IMG/VR virus record: IMGVR_UViG_3300048065_001264
Span: 13,815-77,814 of that record
Length of the DNA stretch: 64,000 nucleotides
Source: a virus
Strand: one strand, 5' to 3'
In this document: in pieces, positions 5,139-33,432 of the stretch
Numbering within the stretch: the first letter of the stretch is position 1
How the letters are laid out: each line of letters opens with the position of its first letter
Translations under genes and position numbers: made by a program
Notes under the pieces: generated by a model
The model's database searches: none
Told to the model about the DNA's origin: nothing
The model's input: the letters and a program-made list of their open reading frames with translations, nothing else

Positions 5139-5144
5139 GTATTA

Positions 5145-6410
5145 TTATTGTACTTTTAATGTAAACATATCAACATATTTTTTATGAGTTTTAAGTTGAT
5201 ATGTTTTATTTCCACTTACAAAATATATTTCTTCATTTTTTCGTAAATATACTTCACTTTCTTCATAGTCCCATATTAAATAAGGATCATTTTCATTTTC
5301 TTCATTCAAACTTATTCTGTATGCTTCATTTGTAGTTTCTATTGTATAATATTCCTCGTCTTTTCTTAGTCTCACATCATACTCTAAAACAGAATCATCA
5401 TCTACACTCAATGTATTATTTAAACGATCAAGAATTCTTATTTTTGCACCAACCTCAACCGATCTTCTTGAGTCAATAGAATTTACTAAATTATTTGTAA
5501 GACGAGGATCATCACTCGCAACTGCTTCAGTTCCCCATAGCACTTTTCGTTTACTAACTTGACGAGTCGCAGTCATTCTATCATCAAAAACTTCAGGTAT
5601 TAAATATGCATTGACATTCATTGAAAAGGTAGTAGATACATTTCTATCATCATCAGAAGATGATTCGACCGTGTTTGAAAAAGAATCTATTGATGTTCTA
5701 AATTTTAGTTTTTTAGGATCACCCCAATAATCATCACTTGCAAAGTTTATTTTCTCTACAAGTTGATTCATTTGTTCCACATAATCTGTATTGATTGTAA
5801 AATCGTAGGTTAATATTACATGATCAGGAAATGTAATATTATGTACTTCATATACCGGTTGCATATCATTCAAAATACTGAACTTATCGTACATATTTTT
5901 TGAATCAAACTTTTTGATAAAAGGAGCAGAAAGATATTTGTTAAAATGAATGAAATTGTCATCACGTGACATGGAAGTACGAGTAAAAATAATCATAGGT
6001 CTTTGTATCTGACCTTTTTTATCACGATAAACTCCATCGTTTCTTATTGCACTCCACTTTTCAGGTGAAGCATGACGAACAGGCACATTTATTATACTAC
6101 CGTTTGTATCTAAAACTTGTGGTCTTATTACATTTATAAAATACTCGTATATTATATTATCTATATCAAGCAATGTAATAGCATAACTTTCAAGTGAATT
6201 TGTGGTTTCACCCATTTTAAGTTTTTCTGCCCTTTCATCGGAATATAAACTATGATGAGACTTTTTAAGATTTGAACGATAAGAATCGTTATCTACATTG
6301 GGTGGTAATGTATTTAATTCTGCTTTAAAGTTTTGAGAAGTTTCTGTCTTATTAGGAGATAACTTTTTTAAAGTAATAAATGGATTGGTAACTTTTTCGT
6401 AATTACTCAT
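5145..6410 (-). CDS. tail terminator/sheath stabiliser-like neck protein (gp15-like) with a C-terminal extension
   Basis: VPVRHASPEKW, QRPMIIFTRTS, Y-x-F-x-I-x-T-x-YVEQMNQLVE pattern; follows the gp13/gp14-like genes. Confidence 0.7.
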   Translation of the reverse strand: MSNYEKVTNPFITLKKLSPNKTETSQNFKAELNTLPPNVDNDSYRSNLKKSHHSLYSDERAEKLKMGETTNSLESYAITLLDIDNIIYEYFINVIRPQVLDTNGSIINVPVRHASPEKWSAIRNDGVYRDKKGQIQRPMIIFTRTSMSRDDNFIHFNKYLSAPFIKKFDSKNMYDKFSILNDMQPVYEVHNITFPDHVILTYDFTINTDYVEQMNQLVEKINFASDDYWGDPKKLKFRTSIDSFSNTVESSSDDDRNVSTTFSMNVNAYLIPEVFDDRMTATRQVSKRKVLWGTEAVASDDPRLTNNLVNSIDSRRSVEVGAKIRILDRLNNTLSVDDDSVLEYDVRLRKDEEYYTIETTNEAYRISLNEENENDPYLIWDYEESEVYLRKNEEIYFVSGNKTYQLKTHKKYVDMFTLKVQ

Positions 6411-27768: not shown

Positions 27769-30369
27769 TTATGCTCCGTATTTTATCTTACTAAATGAAC
27801 CTTCTTTTTGAATTTCTACAATTTCATCCACCATATCTCGCATAACATCCAAATGACTAATGACCACGATGAACTCAAACTGACCTTTTAGATAAGTAAA
27901 TAGATTAAATACACTGCTAATATTGTCTCCGTCTAATGTACCCCAACCTTCGTCAATAACAAGGAAATTAGAACGAGGAAGACTGCTTACATTGATAAGT
28001 GCTACACGCATAGCAATACTGCTTATGAATCGTTCCATACCACTACACATCTCTAAAGGCCAATGACGGTCTTCGTAGGTTATCTTTGAGTAAATGTGTT
28101 TTCCATCCATTTCAAGATTCATACCGAAATCAACAATTTGAGAAAGAATATTATTAACTTCACTTTCAATACTTGGAATTGTTTTAGAAATTAACTCGTA
28201 TGAAATACCATCTCGTTTTACCGCATCAAGATACAATTCGTACCCTCTCTTTTTTCTTTCATAACTTTTTGCTTCTTCTATTGATGCAAGAATATCTTCG
28301 TGTTCCTTTTCAGCAATTTTTACCTCACCAAAAAGAGTTTGAAGTTTTTCATTTTCTTCATTCGCTATATTGTTTACGGACAATAACTTGCTTTGAAGAT
28401 CATCTACCTCTAGTTGTAGTTTTTTATTAAATTCAATTATGTCCTTGCACTCATGATACGAATCGATATTTTTGTTATTAATTATAATATCTTTTTCAAG
28501 TGACTCTATCATACTAGATAAAGCAAGAACTTTTGAATCGGCTTCGTTGATTTCAAATGAAGTTTGTGTCAAAGTATTATTTAAATCTTTCAATTCCTCA
28601 TATTCATTTTCTACATTTTCAAATTCACTTAATTGCTCTGTGTATACTGCCTTTTGCTTTACAAGTTCGTCTGCGGCTGCTTTGTCTTTGTCAAGTTCTT
28701 GTTTAGTTTGTTCTGCACTTTCAATTAAGTTTTTAGAATTGTTTACACAATACGAACAATTCGGATCATATTCGTGGTCATCATAATGTTTTAATTTATC
28801 AAGTTTAGCATTAACTGAAGTTCTCAGAACTGCTAAGTCTTTATCGACAATCACTACATCTTCTCTTATTTTAAGAACCTTTACATAATTTTCTTCTACA
28901 CCATATAACTCGGAAATTCTTTTTGACAAATCTCCTCGTTTATTTACAAGTTCTTTTTTACGTGCAGATTCTTCACCTCTTTGTTTTTCTGCTTCTAAAA
29001 GCCTATCTTCCAAATTCTTTTTATTAAACTCCAAATTATCTATATCTGAACTATCGTTATCAAACGAACAATTTTTAAAATTTGAACTTTTATCAGAAAG
29101 AATTTTATTTACTCTTTTTTGTTCAAGTAAAGCAATATTAGTTTTGCTCTCTTGTTCAGAATATTGTTCAGATATATTATCAAGTTTTTCTTTAATTTCT
29201 GCCAATGTTTCATCAAAATTTTCACGATTAAATCTTTTTAATAAAGCATTTATTTCTTTTATATCCTCAGATGCAGTAGAGTGTAATTGATCAAATATAT
29301 CAATTCCCATAAATTGAGCAAGCAGGTCTTTTCTTTCACTTTGACTTTTATCTATAAAAATTGCATTGTTGTTTTGTAAACTAAGAGTAGTTAAAACAAA
29401 ATCTTCATAAGAACCCACATGATCACGGATAATGGCATTTGTTCCTGATCGTTGCTCTCCATTCAGTGAAATAGTTTGACCTTCTTCATCTAGTTTCCAA
29501 AAGTCCACAACAACAGTAACATCTCCATTCTTTTTTGTGGATGCAGTTCTCTCAATATAATAATTTACTCCACCTATTTCAAAATTAAGTTTACAATAAA
29601 AAGAATCTGTTTGTGTATTTAGTACGTGTGAAGCCTTGAATGCACGATCACATTTATCAAATAAGCAAAAACTTAATGCACTCATCACACTGCTTTTTCC
29701 ACTTGCATTAGAAGCAAACAATCCCATAACACTTTTCATATTAGAAAAGTCAATAACATTCCCGTCTCCGTAACTAAACATATTTCCAAATTCAAACTTC
29801 TTTGGTTTCCAAATACAATTTTTGAGTATTTCTTTTATTATCAGTTTTTCATTTACTTCTTTGTTTATATCAAGAGCAGTTTTTATTTGTTCTTCATCAA
29901 CTACAAAATTACGAGTTAGATAATCTTCAATAAGATCGTTTTGAATTTGGACAAGTGATATGTCTCCAAAATCAAATTTATTATCACGATCAAACTTTTT
30001 TGCTTCAGAAATCGCATCACATCGTGTAACATTTAAATCAGTTATACTCGTTTGCTTCCGTATTTCTGCAATAATCTCTTTTGTCTCGGTTGCGGTTGTA
30101 TTATACACCTTGACACGCAATCTTGCTTTATTTGGTAGTTTAGATAAATCACTAACACACTTTCCATCACGAACCGTAACAGTATAATAACCATATTCAT
30201 TATGTACATCATAATGTTGATGTGTTCTATTTTCCAAATCCCATAAAACATATCCATGTCCAGACGGAAGTTCTCCGTGGTTTTGTTGTATCATACTACC
30301 AGAATAAACAACAACTGGTTTATCAGGATTGTGTCTGATTACCTTTATATATTTTTCTTTATCTTCCAT
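27769..30369 (-). CDS. sbcC: SbcC/Rad50 (gp46-like) ATPase fused at its N-terminus to the C-terminal part of the SbcD/Mre11 nuclease
   Basis: N-terminal YSGS..QQNHGE..HGY; Walker A NASGKSS; zinc hook CSYC; CSGME signature; IDEGWGTLD; ISH. Confidence 0.9.
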   Translation of the reverse strand: MEDKEKYIKVIRHNPDKPVVVYSGSMIQQNHGELPSGHGYVLWDLENRTHQHYDVHNEYGYYTVTVRDGKCVSDLSKLPNKARLRVKVYNTTATETKEIIAEIRKQTSITDLNVTRCDAISEAKKFDRDNKFDFGDISLVQIQNDLIEDYLTRNFVVDEEQIKTALDINKEVNEKLIIKEILKNCIWKPKKFEFGNMFSYGDGNVIDFSNMKSVMGLFASNASGKSSVMSALSFCLFDKCDRAFKASHVLNTQTDSFYCKLNFEIGGVNYYIERTASTKKNGDVTVVVDFWKLDEEGQTISLNGEQRSGTNAIIRDHVGSYEDFVLTTLSLQNNNAIFIDKSQSERKDLLAQFMGIDIFDQLHSTASEDIKEINALLKRFNRENFDETLAEIKEKLDNISEQYSEQESKTNIALLEQKRVNKILSDKSSNFKNCSFDNDSSDIDNLEFNKKNLEDRLLEAEKQRGEESARKKELVNKRGDLSKRISELYGVEENYVKVLKIREDVVIVDKDLAVLRTSVNAKLDKLKHYDDHEYDPNCSYCVNNSKNLIESAEQTKQELDKDKAAADELVKQKAVYTEQLSEFENVENEYEELKDLNNTLTQTSFEINEADSKVLALSSMIESLEKDIIINNKNIDSYHECKDIIEFNKKLQLEVDDLQSKLLSVNNIANEENEKLQTLFGEVKIAEKEHEDILASIEEAKSYERKKRGYELYLDAVKRDGISYELISKTIPSIESEVNNILSQIVDFGMNLEMDGKHIYSKITYEDRHWPLEMCSGMERFISSIAMRVALINVSSLPRSNFLVIDEGWGTLDGDNISSVFNLFTYLKGQFEFIVVISHLDVMRDMVDEIVEIQKEGSFSKIKYGA

Positions 30370-31294
30370 TCGTTACAATTTCTAAAATATGTTGTCCAAC
30401 CTCATAATCATTTAAATATGGACTAAGATGAACATGACCTTGCTTTGGAAAATACATATTAGGTCCTAAAAAGGGTGTTCTTTTTTCCAAGTTCTTTAAG
30501 TCACCTCCTTGTTGTTGCCATAAAATTCCTTTAGGACCAAACATTTGGTGAATATAGTCTGTTGTAATAATTGTCTTCGTTCCAATTGCAGATGAAATGT
30601 TTGTAATACAACCCTCCGACCCAATTACATAATCACAATTTTTAATTAAACTTGCAGTAAACGAGAATTTACTTGTGGAGTTAATTTCAGGAAAATTCTT
30701 AGAAATTTTTTCGTCTAACCCCAACGCAAATAAAAGAATATCAGAAGATAATTCTAAGCAATTTATAATATCAAAAATATTTCTAGAACCCGACCCATAT
30801 CCATTGCCAGTTTTGCCACCGTCTGCTCTTTGATACTCCTCTTCTGTAAATAGGAAACTTTTTCGTGACCAGTCTACTTGATATCCGACTAGTTTTACAT
30901 CTTCTTCAAGTTCACCTATATTTTTTAATTCATTTATACTTTTTCTAATAGAATAGTCGAGTGTTGGGTTTGTAAAAATTTCAAAGGAATCATCATAGTT
31001 TTTGATATTGCACATTTTTTGAAATTGAGATACTGCCGATTCGTATGGGTCTAATACTGACACATCTTCATCCATTATAGTATGTACGATATCGTAATCT
31101 ATATTTGCACTCTCTTTATAGAAAACTCCATCTATATATGGATTATTTAAAAGTAATTCAATTGGTTGTAAAAAAGAAATATCAAAATGCACTAAGCTGT
31201 TAGGATTCATTTCTTTAATTTTCTTGGCAACACTACTTGCGAAAAGTGTATCACCTATGTGTATATTTCTACACCTAACAAGTATCTTAGTCAT
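30359..31294 (-). CDS. glycosyltransferase, GT9 (heptosyltransferase-like) family
   Basis: KILVR...HIGDTLF.S.V.K.IK...P and ASLIKNCDYVIGSEG..TNISSAIGTKTI; likely start ATG at 31294. Confidence 0.75.
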   Translation of the reverse strand: MTKILVRCRNIHIGDTLFASSVAKKIKEMNPNSLVHFDISFLQPIELLLNNPYIDGVFYKESANIDYDIVHTIMDEDVSVLDPYESAVSQFQKMCNIKNYDDSFEIFTNPTLDYSIRKSINELKNIGELEEDVKLVGYQVDWSRKSFLFTEEEYQRADGGKTGNGYGSGSRNIFDIINCLELSSDILLFALGLDEKISKNFPEINSTSKFSFTASLIKNCDYVIGSEGCITNISSAIGTKTIITTDYIHQMFGPKGILWQQQGGDLKNLEKRTPFLGPNMYFPKQGHVHLSPYLNDYEVGQHILEIVTNGR

Positions 31295-31991
31295 CACTAA
31301 CACACCACCCTTCTAGTTTATATTCGTCTAGTTTACTATCAGGAATAAATCTATGCTCAGTTTGATACTCTTGTAAAACTTGATACTTGTGTATATCCCC
31401 AAGCATAACAATATCATATCCGTTAAACATAGGTAAGTTAATATCCCCACCCATAACTACATATCCTATATCAGTTCTACTTCTTTTTACCGCACCATGA
31501 TATACTGCTATCTTGGTTTTAATAGAATCATCTTTTATGTCAGACCCTTTGATATATTTTACCGGATCTTCAAATATTCCAAAGACACCGATGGCAACAT
31601 CACCTAATTTATATACACCCGTATCTTTTAGATAAAACAAATTGTCGTCGTCCATCATATCAAGTATAGGTGATAATACATCAAGACGATCAGGGTTATT
31701 TAAATTACAGTCGTGATTACCTGCAATTACAATTGTAGGATGAAGTTTGGAACACTCTCTTAAAAACGAAGATATTTGATGAATCAACTCAGGACTCATC
31801 TCTGTCTTAGCATGAGCAATGTCCCCACCGATAAAAATGATTGCATTATCAAGATTATCATCTTTAACTTGTTTGTAAAAATTTTCAAATACAAGTGAAT
31901 ATTCATTGTGCCTTTTTACATTTCTAATATGAATGTCTGCAAGATGATATACTTTTTCAACATTATTTAAATTTGTTTTTAGTTCATGCAT
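31287..31991 (-). CDS. sbcD: SbcD/Mre11 (gp47-like) metallophosphoesterase, N-terminal fragment
   Basis: HLADIH, GGDIAH, AGNHD, YHG, LGDIHK; lacks the following YxGS/capping region. Confidence 0.88.
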   Translation of the reverse strand: MHELKTNLNNVEKVYHLADIHIRNVKRHNEYSLVFENFYKQVKDDNLDNAIIFIGGDIAHAKTEMSPELIHQISSFLRECSKLHPTIVIAGNHDCNLNNPDRLDVLSPILDMMDDDNLFYLKDTGVYKLGDVAIGVFGIFEDPVKYIKGSDIKDDSIKTKIAVYHGAVKRSRTDIGYVVMGGDINLPMFNGYDIVMLGDIHKYQVLQEYQTEHRFIPDSKLDEYKLEGWCVSDD

Positions 31992-32908
31992 AGTTTTTGT
32001 TTCATCAATTCACTAAAATCAAGAAATTCTGCGTTTCTAATTTTGTGAATTATTTTGTTAAACCCAATGTCCGCTGCATCTTCGTTTCCCATTTTGACGA
32101 GTCTAACTTTTATGCTTTCACTCATCAATGTTTCGGAAATTTGTAATGCGTTTTTAAATGCATCGTTATCAAGAACGATACATACCTCAGAAACTCCGTG
32201 CTCAACTAATTTTGTTTTTAGTTTACTTGGAATATTCTTCCCCAATAATGGAATTGCGTTTCTACGAATTGCCATAGCATCAAATACACCTTCGCAAAAA
32301 ATAAGTGGTTCGGAGAAATCAATTTGATTTTCAAACACCACTACATCTTTACTAACCGGTGGATTTTTGTATCGTAAATACGCAGTTCCTGTAAAATCTC
32401 TTGCTATAAAATAATTTAAATTATTATCACAATCATATGATGGTATTATAATTCTATTTGCATAATCACCACTTTCACAATATCCAATATTATATCTTTC
32501 TATATCATATGAAAATATATTTCGTTGTCTTAGGTAATTAAACGCAGACTTTGATGCTCTTGTTTTTTCATTATCATACTGCAATGATGTAAATTCATAT
32601 GGAAGGTGAATTTTAACTTGTTCTTCCTCGGTCTGTTGCGTACTTTTTGGTATCTTTACAATTCTTGATAATTCTGTAAGATATTGAGGAGCAACATTCA
32701 TCTTCTTAAATAAACCATAAATTGATCTACCTTTTGAATTTGTATCAATCCAACTCTGCCATCTCTGCGTAGATAGATTAATAGCAAGTTTCGGTTTTCT
32801 ATGGTGCGAAAATGGACACATAAACATAGCCTCGTCTTTAGAGACGATTTTTCCATTTCCTAATACTTTTTGTAAAAGATTAAGAAGTTTTTGTTCGGAA
32901 ATACCCAC
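31979..32908 (-). CDS. DNA primase (DnaG/gp61-like)
   Basis: N-terminal CPF..H, RIIIP, Y..P, TOPRIM EGVFD and LDND. Confidence 0.88.
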   Translation of the reverse strand: MGISEQKLLNLLQKVLGNGKIVSKDEAMFMCPFSHHRKPKLAINLSTQRWQSWIDTNSKGRSIYGLFKKMNVAPQYLTELSRIVKIPKSTQQTEEEQVKIHLPYEFTSLQYDNEKTRASKSAFNYLRQRNIFSYDIERYNIGYCESGDYANRIIIPSYDCDNNLNYFIARDFTGTAYLRYKNPPVSKDVVVFENQIDFSEPLIFCEGVFDAMAIRRNAIPLLGKNIPSKLKTKLVEHGVSEVCIVLDNDAFKNALQISETLMSESIKVRLVKMGNEDAADIGFNKIIHKIRNAEFLDFSELMKQKLCMN

Positions 32909-33432
32909 TATTTTAAAGAATACCAGTGATACAACGATGCGACCACCGCATCAAGCATATCGTAGTTTTTTTTATCATAATTATTCTTAGAATTATAGTG
33001 AATAAATTCGGATAAATCAAGCATATTATCAATATTGCACTTTACAAATGTTTTACTATCTAATCCTTTTTCTCTACTTTTTCCGAATACCACTTTACGT
33101 AAAGTTGATACATTTACATGATCAACCTGAACTTTGAATAGTTCTTCAATTACATAACTTACAATAGCATTACACTTTGCCAGTTTAACAATAGTTTGTT
33201 GACTTGTTCGGCCACCACCGAACCCACTTAAAGTGTCTTCCACTATTATTGTTGATACATTGTTTATTTCAATAGAAGATAATGTATCCGAAACATAATG
33301 TGCTTTTTCACGAAAGTTTGTAAGTTTTTTTACATCAACAAAACCTGCATAATCTATATTTGATTTAGAAGATGAGTAGCAGTATCCAACTACACTTGTA
33401 CTTATATCCAATCCTAAACAATATTTTGACAT
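32908..33432 (-). CDS. RuvC-like Holliday junction resolvase
   Basis: LGLDIST..GY, IIVE, D..DA acidic residues. Confidence 0.8.
   Translation of the reverse strand: MSKYCLGLDISTSVVGYCYSSSKSNIDYAGFVDVKKLTNFREKAHYVSDTLSSIEINNVSTIIVEDTLSGFGGGRTSQQTIVKLAKCNAIVSYVIEELFKVQVDHVNVSTLRKVVFGKSREKGLDSKTFVKCNIDNMLDLSEFIHYNSKNNYDKKNYDMLDAVVASLYHWYSLK

Follow-up and report, generated by a model that had tools for sequence, protein, structure and literature searches.

Conserved extensions at the split point of a phage SbcD-SbcC gene: a candidate clasp for reassembly of the nuclease

The analyzed DNA (a stretch of 64,000 nucleotides from an IMG/VR virus record, in the following referred to as the window) contains an SbcD/Mre11 nuclease gene that is divided into two fragments by an intervening gene. 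All three genes are located on the minus strand, in three different frames. The N-fragment (31287–31991; 234 aa) carries motifs I–V of the nuclease, and its C-terminal end, which reads GDIHKYQVLQEYQTEHRFIPDSKLDEYKLEGWCVSDD up to the stop codon, includes a tail (residues 205–234; 31290–31379) without counterpart in unsplit relatives. The intervening gene (30359–31294; 311 aa) encodes a protein for which AF2 and Foldseek point to a glycosyltransferase-like GT-B fold. The C-fragment (27769–30369; 866 aa) starts with MEDKEKYIKVIRHNPDKPVVVYSGS; its N-terminal head (residues 1–17; 30319–30369) has no counterpart in unsplit relatives either, and the remainder (27769–30318) comprises, based on Pfam and PHROG, the final phosphoesterase strands, the capping domain, and the SbcC/Rad50 ATPase. 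The genes overlap, with 8 nt (31287–31294) common to the stop end of the N-fragment and the ATG of the middle ORF, and 11 nt (30359–30369) common to the stop end of the middle ORF and the ATG of the C-fragment. An initial annotation of this locus had proposed that tail and head fold together in trans and clasp the split nuclease; the sequences quoted there match the two ORFs (31287–31991 and 27769–30369, both on the minus strand) exactly. Promoter and terminator scans of the locus, the DNA of which is AT-rich, were uninformative.

The N-fragment matched the Pfam family Metallophos (PF00149; E 2.4e-8, above the cut-off) and PHROG 100 (SbcD-like; E 2e-17). All five metal-binding motifs (DxH, GDxxH/D, GNHD/E, H, and GxxH) were located in it, as DIH, GDIAH, GNHD, H165, and GDIH, and the corresponding residues (D19/H21, G56-D57..H60, G91-N92-H93-D94, H165, and G198-D199-I200-H201) are invariant in the alignment of relatives. 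The last phosphoesterase strands (YSGS..QQNHGE), followed by the capping domain, are found in the C-fragment, which was furthermore matched by PHROG 77 (SbcC-like; E 9e-45) and Pfam AAA_23 (E 2.8e-13; 51.4 bits versus a cut-off of 27), with SMC_N and SbcC_Walker_B matches staying under their Pfam cut-offs. The features of SbcC/Rad50 are present, namely an N-terminal half with Walker A, a C-terminal half with Walker B and signature, and, between them, a coiled coil that bears a CxxC zinc hook, whose cysteines (C538 and C541) are invariant in the alignment. The nuclease and capping-domain fold was seen in the model of a contiguous relative (L100, see below), not of the window protein. The gene pair in the window is an Mre11/SbcD fused to a Rad50/SbcC and interrupted by an inserted gene. 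It resembles bacterial and phage SbcCD or Mre11-Rad50 (E. coli SbcCD, T4 gp47/gp46) in nuclease motifs and fold as well as in the SMC-like ATPase with a CxxC hook, but in this phage group both subunits form one polypeptide, which in the window has been split again within the nuclease domain.

For the middle ORF, Pfam and PHROG gave no match. Its AF2 model (pLDDT 90), however, was similar in Foldseek searches to 3tov (best match, E 1e-8), followed by 1psw and 2h1h (E 1e-8 to 1e-5), each with a probability of 1.0, a TM of ~0.5, and 8–12% identity. The modeled protein is thus predicted to adopt a GT-B fold like that of glycosyltransferase family 9 (heptosyltransferase-like), and its identification as a homing endonuclease was rejected on account of this fold. 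The gene has a dN/dS of 0.16, and relatives with 37–42% identity are located in phage glycan-synthesis clusters. While no free-standing homing endonuclease lies between the halves in the window, a homing-endonuclease-like gene is still found at the split site in other lineages, and relatives L002, L181, L273, L279, L295, L302, and L305 harbor Vsr/DUF559-like or TnsA-like ORFs between the halves.

Unsplit relatives are single SbcD-SbcC fusions of 1043–1066 aa. Between GDIH and Y.GS, just 14–22 residues are present in ~226 IMG/VR relatives and 80 cluster representatives; the unsplit gene of Microcystis phage Mel-JY01, for example, reads GDIHKMQYMDTERRLAYPGS at the split point. The tail/head module is missing from ~226 of the 227 unsplit IMG/VR relatives, and every split relative that was found has both extensions (>80 distinct N-fragments and 29 distinct pairs; the pairs were taken from IMG/VR loci only, and alignment-based IMG/VR scans gave mostly unsplit relatives). 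Since unsplit relatives lack them, tail and head represent extensions and not nuclease sequence, in agreement with the initial annotation. A gene that is contiguous in relatives is therefore split here, with extensions that have no counterpart in the unsplit forms, and the occurrence of these extensions at the split point, judged by sequence comparison, is far beyond chance.

The tail family comprises 28 aa (LQEY..E..EIDE..L..YL..GW) and is gap-free over 81 distinct sequences, reaching down to ~45% core identity. In the window, VLQEY prolongs the native strand and is followed by a strand, a helix, and GW, with E218, Y224, G228, and W229 being (nearly) invariant. The head (~17 aa) consists of a basic amphipathic strand (YIKVIRH) that leads into KP-VVVYSGS; it is kept in the clade of the window and, in the form M.KKIKI.RKKP (KKIKIxRKKP), in ~25 other 50%-identity clusters. 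The conservation of the extensions in relatives, on which the initial proposal depended, was thereby confirmed for tails as well as heads, and it goes along with the split. Values of dN/dS, in a comparison with saturated synonymous sites (dS), were 0.07–0.09 for the tail, 0.10 for the head, and 0.05–0.06 for the cores, so that tail and head are under purifying selection of a strength as in the catalytic core. Such selection speaks, indirectly, for a need for the tails in enzyme activity or assembly. The extensions could in principle be non-functional leftovers of read-through or insertion, and variation is indeed seen in the 5 codons at the end of the tail, where it overlaps the next gene (dN/dS 0.5). 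However, the dN/dS of 0.07–0.10 over the extensions (synonymous sites being saturated), the lack of any indel in 81 tails, and the invariance of E, Y, and GW render this highly improbable.

Moreover, the extensions are of opposite net charge. Across the 29 distinct pairs, every tail is negative (mean −5.3) and 97% of the heads are positive (mean +4.3), and the charges of tail and head are correlated with a Spearman rho of −0.51 (29 pairs, kinship ignored). The complementarity is weak in the window clade itself, where the tail has a charge of about −4 and the head of 0 to +4. The pair is kept with a Vsr/DUF559-like or TnsA-like zinc-finger ORF between the halves, across gaps of 15–335 nt, and where the halves overlap without any gene between them. 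As it persists whatever lies between the halves, it is the pair, and not the insert, that is kept.

A joint fold of tail and head is predicted for the contiguous relative L100. Its AF2 model contains a strand (residues 202–215), a helix (216–224), and GW (226–227), all with pLDDT 84–89, followed by a lower-confidence linker (229–237) and a further strand (238–250; pLDDT 84–89); the linker corresponds to the place where the split forms break. This module is set within an Mre11/SbcD fold (model pLDDT 87) that was matched to the Mre11/SbcD structures 3tho, 7dog, and 4lty (VIA Z 22–23, rmsd ~4 A, 270–285 residues). A strand-helix-GW module with the head providing its missing strand, as envisaged initially, is thus predicted by AF2 in this relative, the strand pairing being assigned from DSSP only. 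For the peptides alone (residues 198–234 of the N-fragment and 1–32 of the C-fragment, with alignments), complex prediction resulted in ipSAE values of 0.24 and 0.22, compared to a mark of 0.32. The similarity of the L100 tail to the split-tail HMM is weak (13 bits), and for the majority of the other contiguous inserts at this hairpin, no homology to the split tails could be recognised.

Contiguous in-frame versions of the module (L100, P0408, and P0498), together with the various inserts that the hairpin tip bears in other clusters, would also fit an older, lineage-specific SbcD insertion domain (e.g., a DNA or Rad50 contact arm), in which a surface loop served as a tolerated homing endonuclease target and the tails are halves of the pre-existing domain. 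Against this speaks that recognisable modules were found in 62 split but only 3 contiguous clusters, that the contiguous modules reach at most 14.5 bits, whereas split tails have a median of 50 bits (with an HMM trained on split tails), and that ~226/227 unsplit IMG/VR relatives are devoid of the module. Furthermore, L100 is nested among split forms (82% identity to the split P0197), which suggests re-fusion. We consider such a pre-existing domain quite unlikely.

A covalent connection of the halves, by a split intein, an intron, ribosomal frameshifting, or bypass, is even harder to reconcile with the data and appears extremely improbable. The window head does contain ..RHN, and the halves of L214, L278, and L304 overlap by 16–19 nt in different frames. 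However, tail and head together amount to ~45 aa, while inteins have 130 aa or more; a conserved Cys/Ser is lacking at the start of the tail (Q/S/N/K, not conserved); and HN followed by Cys/Ser/Thr does not occur, as Pro comes next in the window and HN is missing in other clades. Based on the tail start, the Pro after the head, and the total length, a split intein was rejected. A Rfam scan of the locus (E <=10) showed no intron and nothing beyond three chance-level matches, and a group I/II intron was rejected as well, since there is no Rfam ribozyme match and the flanks are under protein-level selection. In addition, the three genes occupy three frames and the halves are separated by an expressed gene of 0.9 kb, which argues against a covalent product, even though "fractured genes" provide known examples of split inteins on both sides of an endonuclease gene (PMC2677866). 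As intein or intron features are absent, the halves are most naturally read as reassembling without splicing, and to this extent the initial view that no protein splicing is involved was borne out.

Taking these results together, we regard a reassembly clasp as the probable explanation for tail and head as a whole. The idea is well supported by comparison of the extensions (their conservation, selection, charge, and persistence) and by the prediction for the contiguous form. The ancestral gene encoded one SbcD(Mre11)-SbcC(Rad50) polypeptide and is split at the tip of a beta-hairpin, after nuclease motif V (GDIH) and before the Y.GS strand. The N-fragment ends in an acidic module of 28 aa (strand, helix, GW), the C-fragment starts with a basic strand of ~10–17 aa, and the halves would be translated separately, probably in a coupled manner. 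We infer that the basic head strand and the acidic tail strand pair antiparallel in trans, so that the native hairpin would be extended to a ribbon of two strands, with the Y..L..GW helix as its cap. By keeping the two parts of the phosphoesterase sandwich aligned, this ribbon may contribute to assembly and would restore a functional nuclease that is tethered to the ATPase.

The part of the initial annotation that found no support is the kinship of the module with one at the ends of phage homing endonucleases. A tail HMM searched against 17,427 ORFs (260 loci and the window) retrieved SbcD N-fragments only, none of the homing-endonuclease-like ORFs in the 260 loci carried a copy, and Pfam and PHROG returned nothing meaningful for the isolated module. 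No co-occurrence at split points of other phage enzymes was found: in an exact-motif DNA scan of IMG/VR, 32 of 37 matches were SbcD tails and none of the 37 was located at the split point of another enzyme. Overall, the proposed clasp was hence supported with respect to conservation, charge, and predicted fold, but not with respect to its relatedness to homing endonucleases.

The split most likely arose when a free-standing gene for a homing endonuclease inserted at this site; in the window clade, this occupant was most likely swapped for the glycosyltransferase-fold gene. It is conceivable, although somewhat doubtful, that the acidic tail and basic head form a portable, self-contained heterodimerising pair traveling in a mobile cassette (tail-stop / endonuclease gene / start-head). 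Split alleles have 77–86% identity to unsplit ones and <=55% to other split lineages, and a core tree of 194 sequences needs at least 22 changes between split and unsplit states; this patchy distribution would fit a portable cassette. In contrast, tail identity follows core identity (r = 0.47), with few discordant pairs (tail 93–96%, core 73–78%), and a co-conversion test (identity per core quarter, split-split versus unsplit-unsplit pairs) showed just a slight rise near the junction. If true, such a cassette would represent a third "host-sparing" strategy of selfish endonuclease genes, besides introns and inteins, that invades unsplit sbcDC alleles through homing and leaves a stable split after decay of the endonuclease, and the pair could be transplanted as a natural split-protein tag of ~28 + 10 residues.

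To our knowledge, non-covalent tails that rescue a gene broken by mobile DNA have been studied experimentally in one case, NrdA of phage Aeh1, and this repair route is rarely documented. The window locus is part of a large natural series in which another essential enzyme shows this solution. The series extends over hundreds of uncultured phages of marine and freshwater origin and includes every stage: the endonuclease is still there, has decayed, has given way to a cargo gene, or has been lost, or the gene has possibly been re-fused. Three questions thereby become directly accessible to experiment: whether rescue by short charged strand pairs is a general mechanism, in what way cycles of homing endonucleases end in permanently split genes, and whether the 28 + 10-residue pair can be used as a compact split-protein tag.

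The closest precedent is Aeh1 nrdA, which the homing endonuclease gene mobE has divided in two and whose products NrdA-a and NrdA-b bear essential, oppositely charged tails (Crona et al. 2011, Nucleic Acids Res, PMC3045599). As in the window, an inserted gene interrupts the gene of an essential phage enzyme at a point between two neighboring beta-strands. The first half carries a short C-terminal tail and the second an N-terminal one, and these tails are of opposite net charge and without counterpart in unsplit homologues; neighboring genes overlap, and neither RNA nor protein splicing is involved. In Aeh1, however, the tails are not needed for association of the halves but only for higher-order assembly, as their deletion retained the a/b heterodimer and abolished dimerisation and activity (PMC3045599). 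The same is therefore possible in SbcD-SbcC, where the fold itself may associate the halves, the C-fragment providing core strands of the sandwich that alone could drive association, and the tails may restore a higher-order contact (SbcD dimer, SbcD-SbcC, or DNA contact). We consider this unlikely, as tail and head leave adjacent strands of one hairpin, are complementary amphipathic strands of opposite charge, and, where contiguous, are predicted to make up a single ribbon.

Tail-like extensions were also described for T4 topoisomerase gp39/gp60, a phage gene fragmented by mobA with the free-standing endonuclease gene adjoining, and were speculated to act as in Aeh1 (Crona et al., PMC3045599); enzyme and sequences are unrelated to ours, and that study cited neither functional nor comparative evidence. 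Fractured genes (Dassa et al. 2009, PMC2677866), in which split inteins flank a homing endonuclease gene and an electrostatic association of the extensions was proposed, share the order of N-half, intervening ORF (an endonuclease in that case), and C-half. However, those extensions are intein halves that ligate exteins, whereas the window extensions are far too short for this and lack splicing residues, so that the halves must stay non-covalent. Compared to Aeh1, the enzyme is SbcD-SbcC and not RNR, the polarity is reversed (acidic tail, basic head), and at least 2 endonuclease families, a glycosyltransferase-fold gene, or nothing lie between the halves; furthermore, the Aeh1 tails serve dimerisation of heterodimers, whereas a direct strand-strand clasp is predicted here. 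While rescue tails on a split phage enzyme are thus already known in kind (Crona et al. 2011, PMC3045599), and further overlooked cases were predicted in the same study, the SbcD-SbcC tails are a new case and far more widespread, with one homologous tail/head pair common to >60 sequence clusters compared to the single case of Aeh1.

All genes of the window are carried on the minus strand (parent IMG/VR virus record, 77.8 kb), where a primase gene (31979-32908) is followed downstream by 3 tightly overlapping ORFs, each in a different frame. The first (31287-31991) encodes a 234-aa SbcD/Mre11 N-fragment (Pfam Metallophos and the PHROG of SbcD-like nucleases) with all 5 metal-binding motifs of Mre11/SbcD, of which GDIH (residues 198-201) is the final one. 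The second (30359-31294) encodes a 311-aa protein with a predicted GT-B fold (AF2/Foldseek) and without matches in Pfam and PHROG. The third (27769-30369) encodes an 866-aa C-fragment, assigned by Pfam/PHROG, in which 17 residues precede PVVVYSGS..QQNHGE; the capping domain comes next, and then an SbcC/Rad50 ATPase that carries a CxxC hook. The fragment ends quoted in the initial annotation, which proposed that they fold together in trans and clasp the split nuclease non-covalently, match the ORF translations exactly. At 32908-33432 (minus strand), the primase gene and a 143-aa ORF flank a 174-aa ORF without a Pfam match.

Both ends are extensions, as proposed, and not nuclease sequence. In Microcystis phage Mel-JY01, the nearest cultured relative, a single 1066-aa SbcD-SbcC fusion has approximately 13 residues between GDIH and Y.GS, and this spacing is 14-22 residues in approximately 226 relatives from IMG/VR and in 80 of the 150 representatives of sequence clusters; the short spacing in these unsplit relatives indicates that the single polypeptide is the ancestral state. 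By sequence, the window gene is broken within the phosphoesterase domain, in the hairpin following motif V, which leaves the final core strands and the capping domain on the piece bearing the ATPase. While the subunits are separate in E. coli SbcCD and T4 gp47/gp46, SbcD and SbcC, when unsplit, form one polypeptide of 1043-1066 aa throughout this phage group. Reading the window split as a split intein, an intron, or a frameshift fails on size, residues, frames, and Rfam. Five fused SbcD-SbcC cluster representatives (P0407, P0410, P0421, P0462, and P0494; 1326-1381 aa) harbor an in-frame insert of approximately 320 aa in motif III with intein hallmarks (GNHD|C...SGN|C), indicating that another type of mobile element invaded the fused gene at a second site.

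The tail of the N-fragment and the head of the C-fragment are a real, functionally constrained feature. The split gene, the middle ORF, and the two extensions recur in 17 of 17 close relatives (83-98% identity), and a protein search revealed many further N-fragments (220-245 aa, 45-58% identity), all ending in the same 28-residue pattern, xLQEY..E..(I/V)(D/E)E..(L/V)..Y(L/K)..GW.., which aligns without gaps across 81 distinct sequences. Among representatives of 50%-identity clusters, a search found approximately 25 C-fragments of 850-870 aa, which start with M(x)KK(I/V)K(I/L)x(R/K)KxP followed by Y.GS. Within the window clade, where synonymous sites are saturated, dN/dS is 0.07-0.09 for the tail, 0.10 for the head, 0.05-0.06 for the flanking cores, and about 0.5 for the last five tail codons, which overlap the next gene. 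These low tail and head values at saturated synonymous sites indicate that the extensions are translated and constrained, and the protein-level constraint excludes an origin as intron RNA or as junk from read-through.

Combined with earlier loci, a scan of IMG/VR DNA for exact motif matches yielded 29 distinct tail/head pairs. All tails are negatively charged (mean net charge -5.3), heads are positive in 97% (mean +4.3), and head basicity rises with tail acidity (rho -0.51 across the 29 pairs, kinship ignored). Hydrophobic and charged residues alternate in both, a pattern as expected of two putative strands in an amphipathic ribbon. In the relative L100 (1097 aa), tail and head lie in frame, separated by a 12-residue linker. 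In its AF2 model, built from an alignment with split halves among its rows, residues 1-350 form the Mre11/SbcD nuclease and capping domain (VIA Z 22-23 to 3tho, 7dog, and 4lty), and the module is predicted as a strand (202-215), a helix (216-224), GW (226-227), a linker of lower confidence (229-237), and a second strand (238-250), with pLDDT 84-89 in the structured parts. This agrees with the earlier reading of a strand-helix-GW unit whose missing strand is supplied by the head, and we infer from the model that the two strands pair. The break point of split forms is exactly the L100 linker. L100 and two other contiguous forms score at most 14.5 bits against split tails, compared to a median of 50, and L100 falls among split sequences; on these grounds, re-fusion appears as likely as ancestry. 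Taking sequence and model together, we moderately favor a clasp in which tail and head reassemble the split nuclease.

The suggested likeness of this module to homing endonuclease ends was not found, as the tail HMM matches no endonuclease-like ORF in 260 loci. IEVDE..V..YL..GW occurs in a 41-aa ORF beside tail genes in GC-rich phage contigs (L275, 7059-7184, plus strand; also L277 and L286) and N-terminally in a PHROG 1175 protein (L292, 4124-4645, plus strand), preceded by a strand, TILTHPD, resembling the window head KVIRHNPD. Such occurrences, a lead only, may represent a stand-alone version of the strand-strand-helix module or chance.

What separates the halves differs widely among loci: zinc-finger ORFs (248-324 aa) that carry either a Vsr/DUF559-like nuclease domain (L273, L279, L295, and L305; L282 matched other families) or a TnsA-like domain (L002 and L302), a 103-aa ORF, or gaps of 15-335 nt without an ORF (L288, L180, L285, L296, and L287). 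In L214, L278, and L304, no gene intervenes and the halves, which are in different frames, share 16-19 nt (L214: 6689-6705); a frameshift there would yield a contiguous protein like L100, and these overlaps could reflect a genuine minimal split, programmed frameshifting, or misassembly. This variety looks like the classical homing endonuclease gene cycle of invasion, decay, and loss, in which the split and its two extensions stay behind once the endonuclease is gone. In L181, a second homing-endonuclease-like ORF (5140-5979, plus strand; NUMOD3 and a weak DUF559 match) lies directly 5' of the N-fragment of split sbcD, which is thus flanked by two such genes.

The 311-aa ORF is found between the halves in the window clade only, where a cargo gene holds the site held elsewhere by endonuclease genes. 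Its AF2 model (pLDDT 90; Foldseek to 3tov, E 1e-8, also 1psw and 2h1h) would place the protein among the GT-B glycosyltransferases, family 9, and its dN/dS of 0.16 reflects purifying selection. Relatives at 37-42% identity are located in phage glycan-synthesis clusters, not in sbcD. Judged from the appearance of N-terminal sequences, genes next to the homologs in L260-L271 encode a GT2-like transferase, a GDP-mannose-dehydratase-like enzyme, acetyltransferases, and methyltransferases, suggesting that these phages carry a glycan pathway of their own.

At least 22 changes between split and unsplit are required on a tree of 194 nuclease cores. Split L180 shares 86% identity with an unsplit protein versus 55% with split L181; L181 in turn shares 84% identity with a different unsplit protein. 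Such a patchy distribution agrees with a split that is gained through homing and lost when unsplit alleles recombine with it. However, tail identity broadly tracks core identity (r = 0.47) and the similarity gradient near the junction is weak. The tail/head pair may travel with the endonuclease gene.

Rescue of a split gene by tails is a known but barely populated kind, to which the SbcD case is new. In NrdA of phage Aeh1, split by mobE, two oppositely charged tails are needed for activity, a solution described as distinct from splicing and with further cases predicted (Crona et al., PMC3045599). The present locus resembles such a predicted case, in another enzyme and with much broader comparative support. 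Unlike in Aeh1 NrdA, one homologous tail/head pair extends across many lineages, the intervening gene turns over, and a direct strand-strand clasp is predicted.
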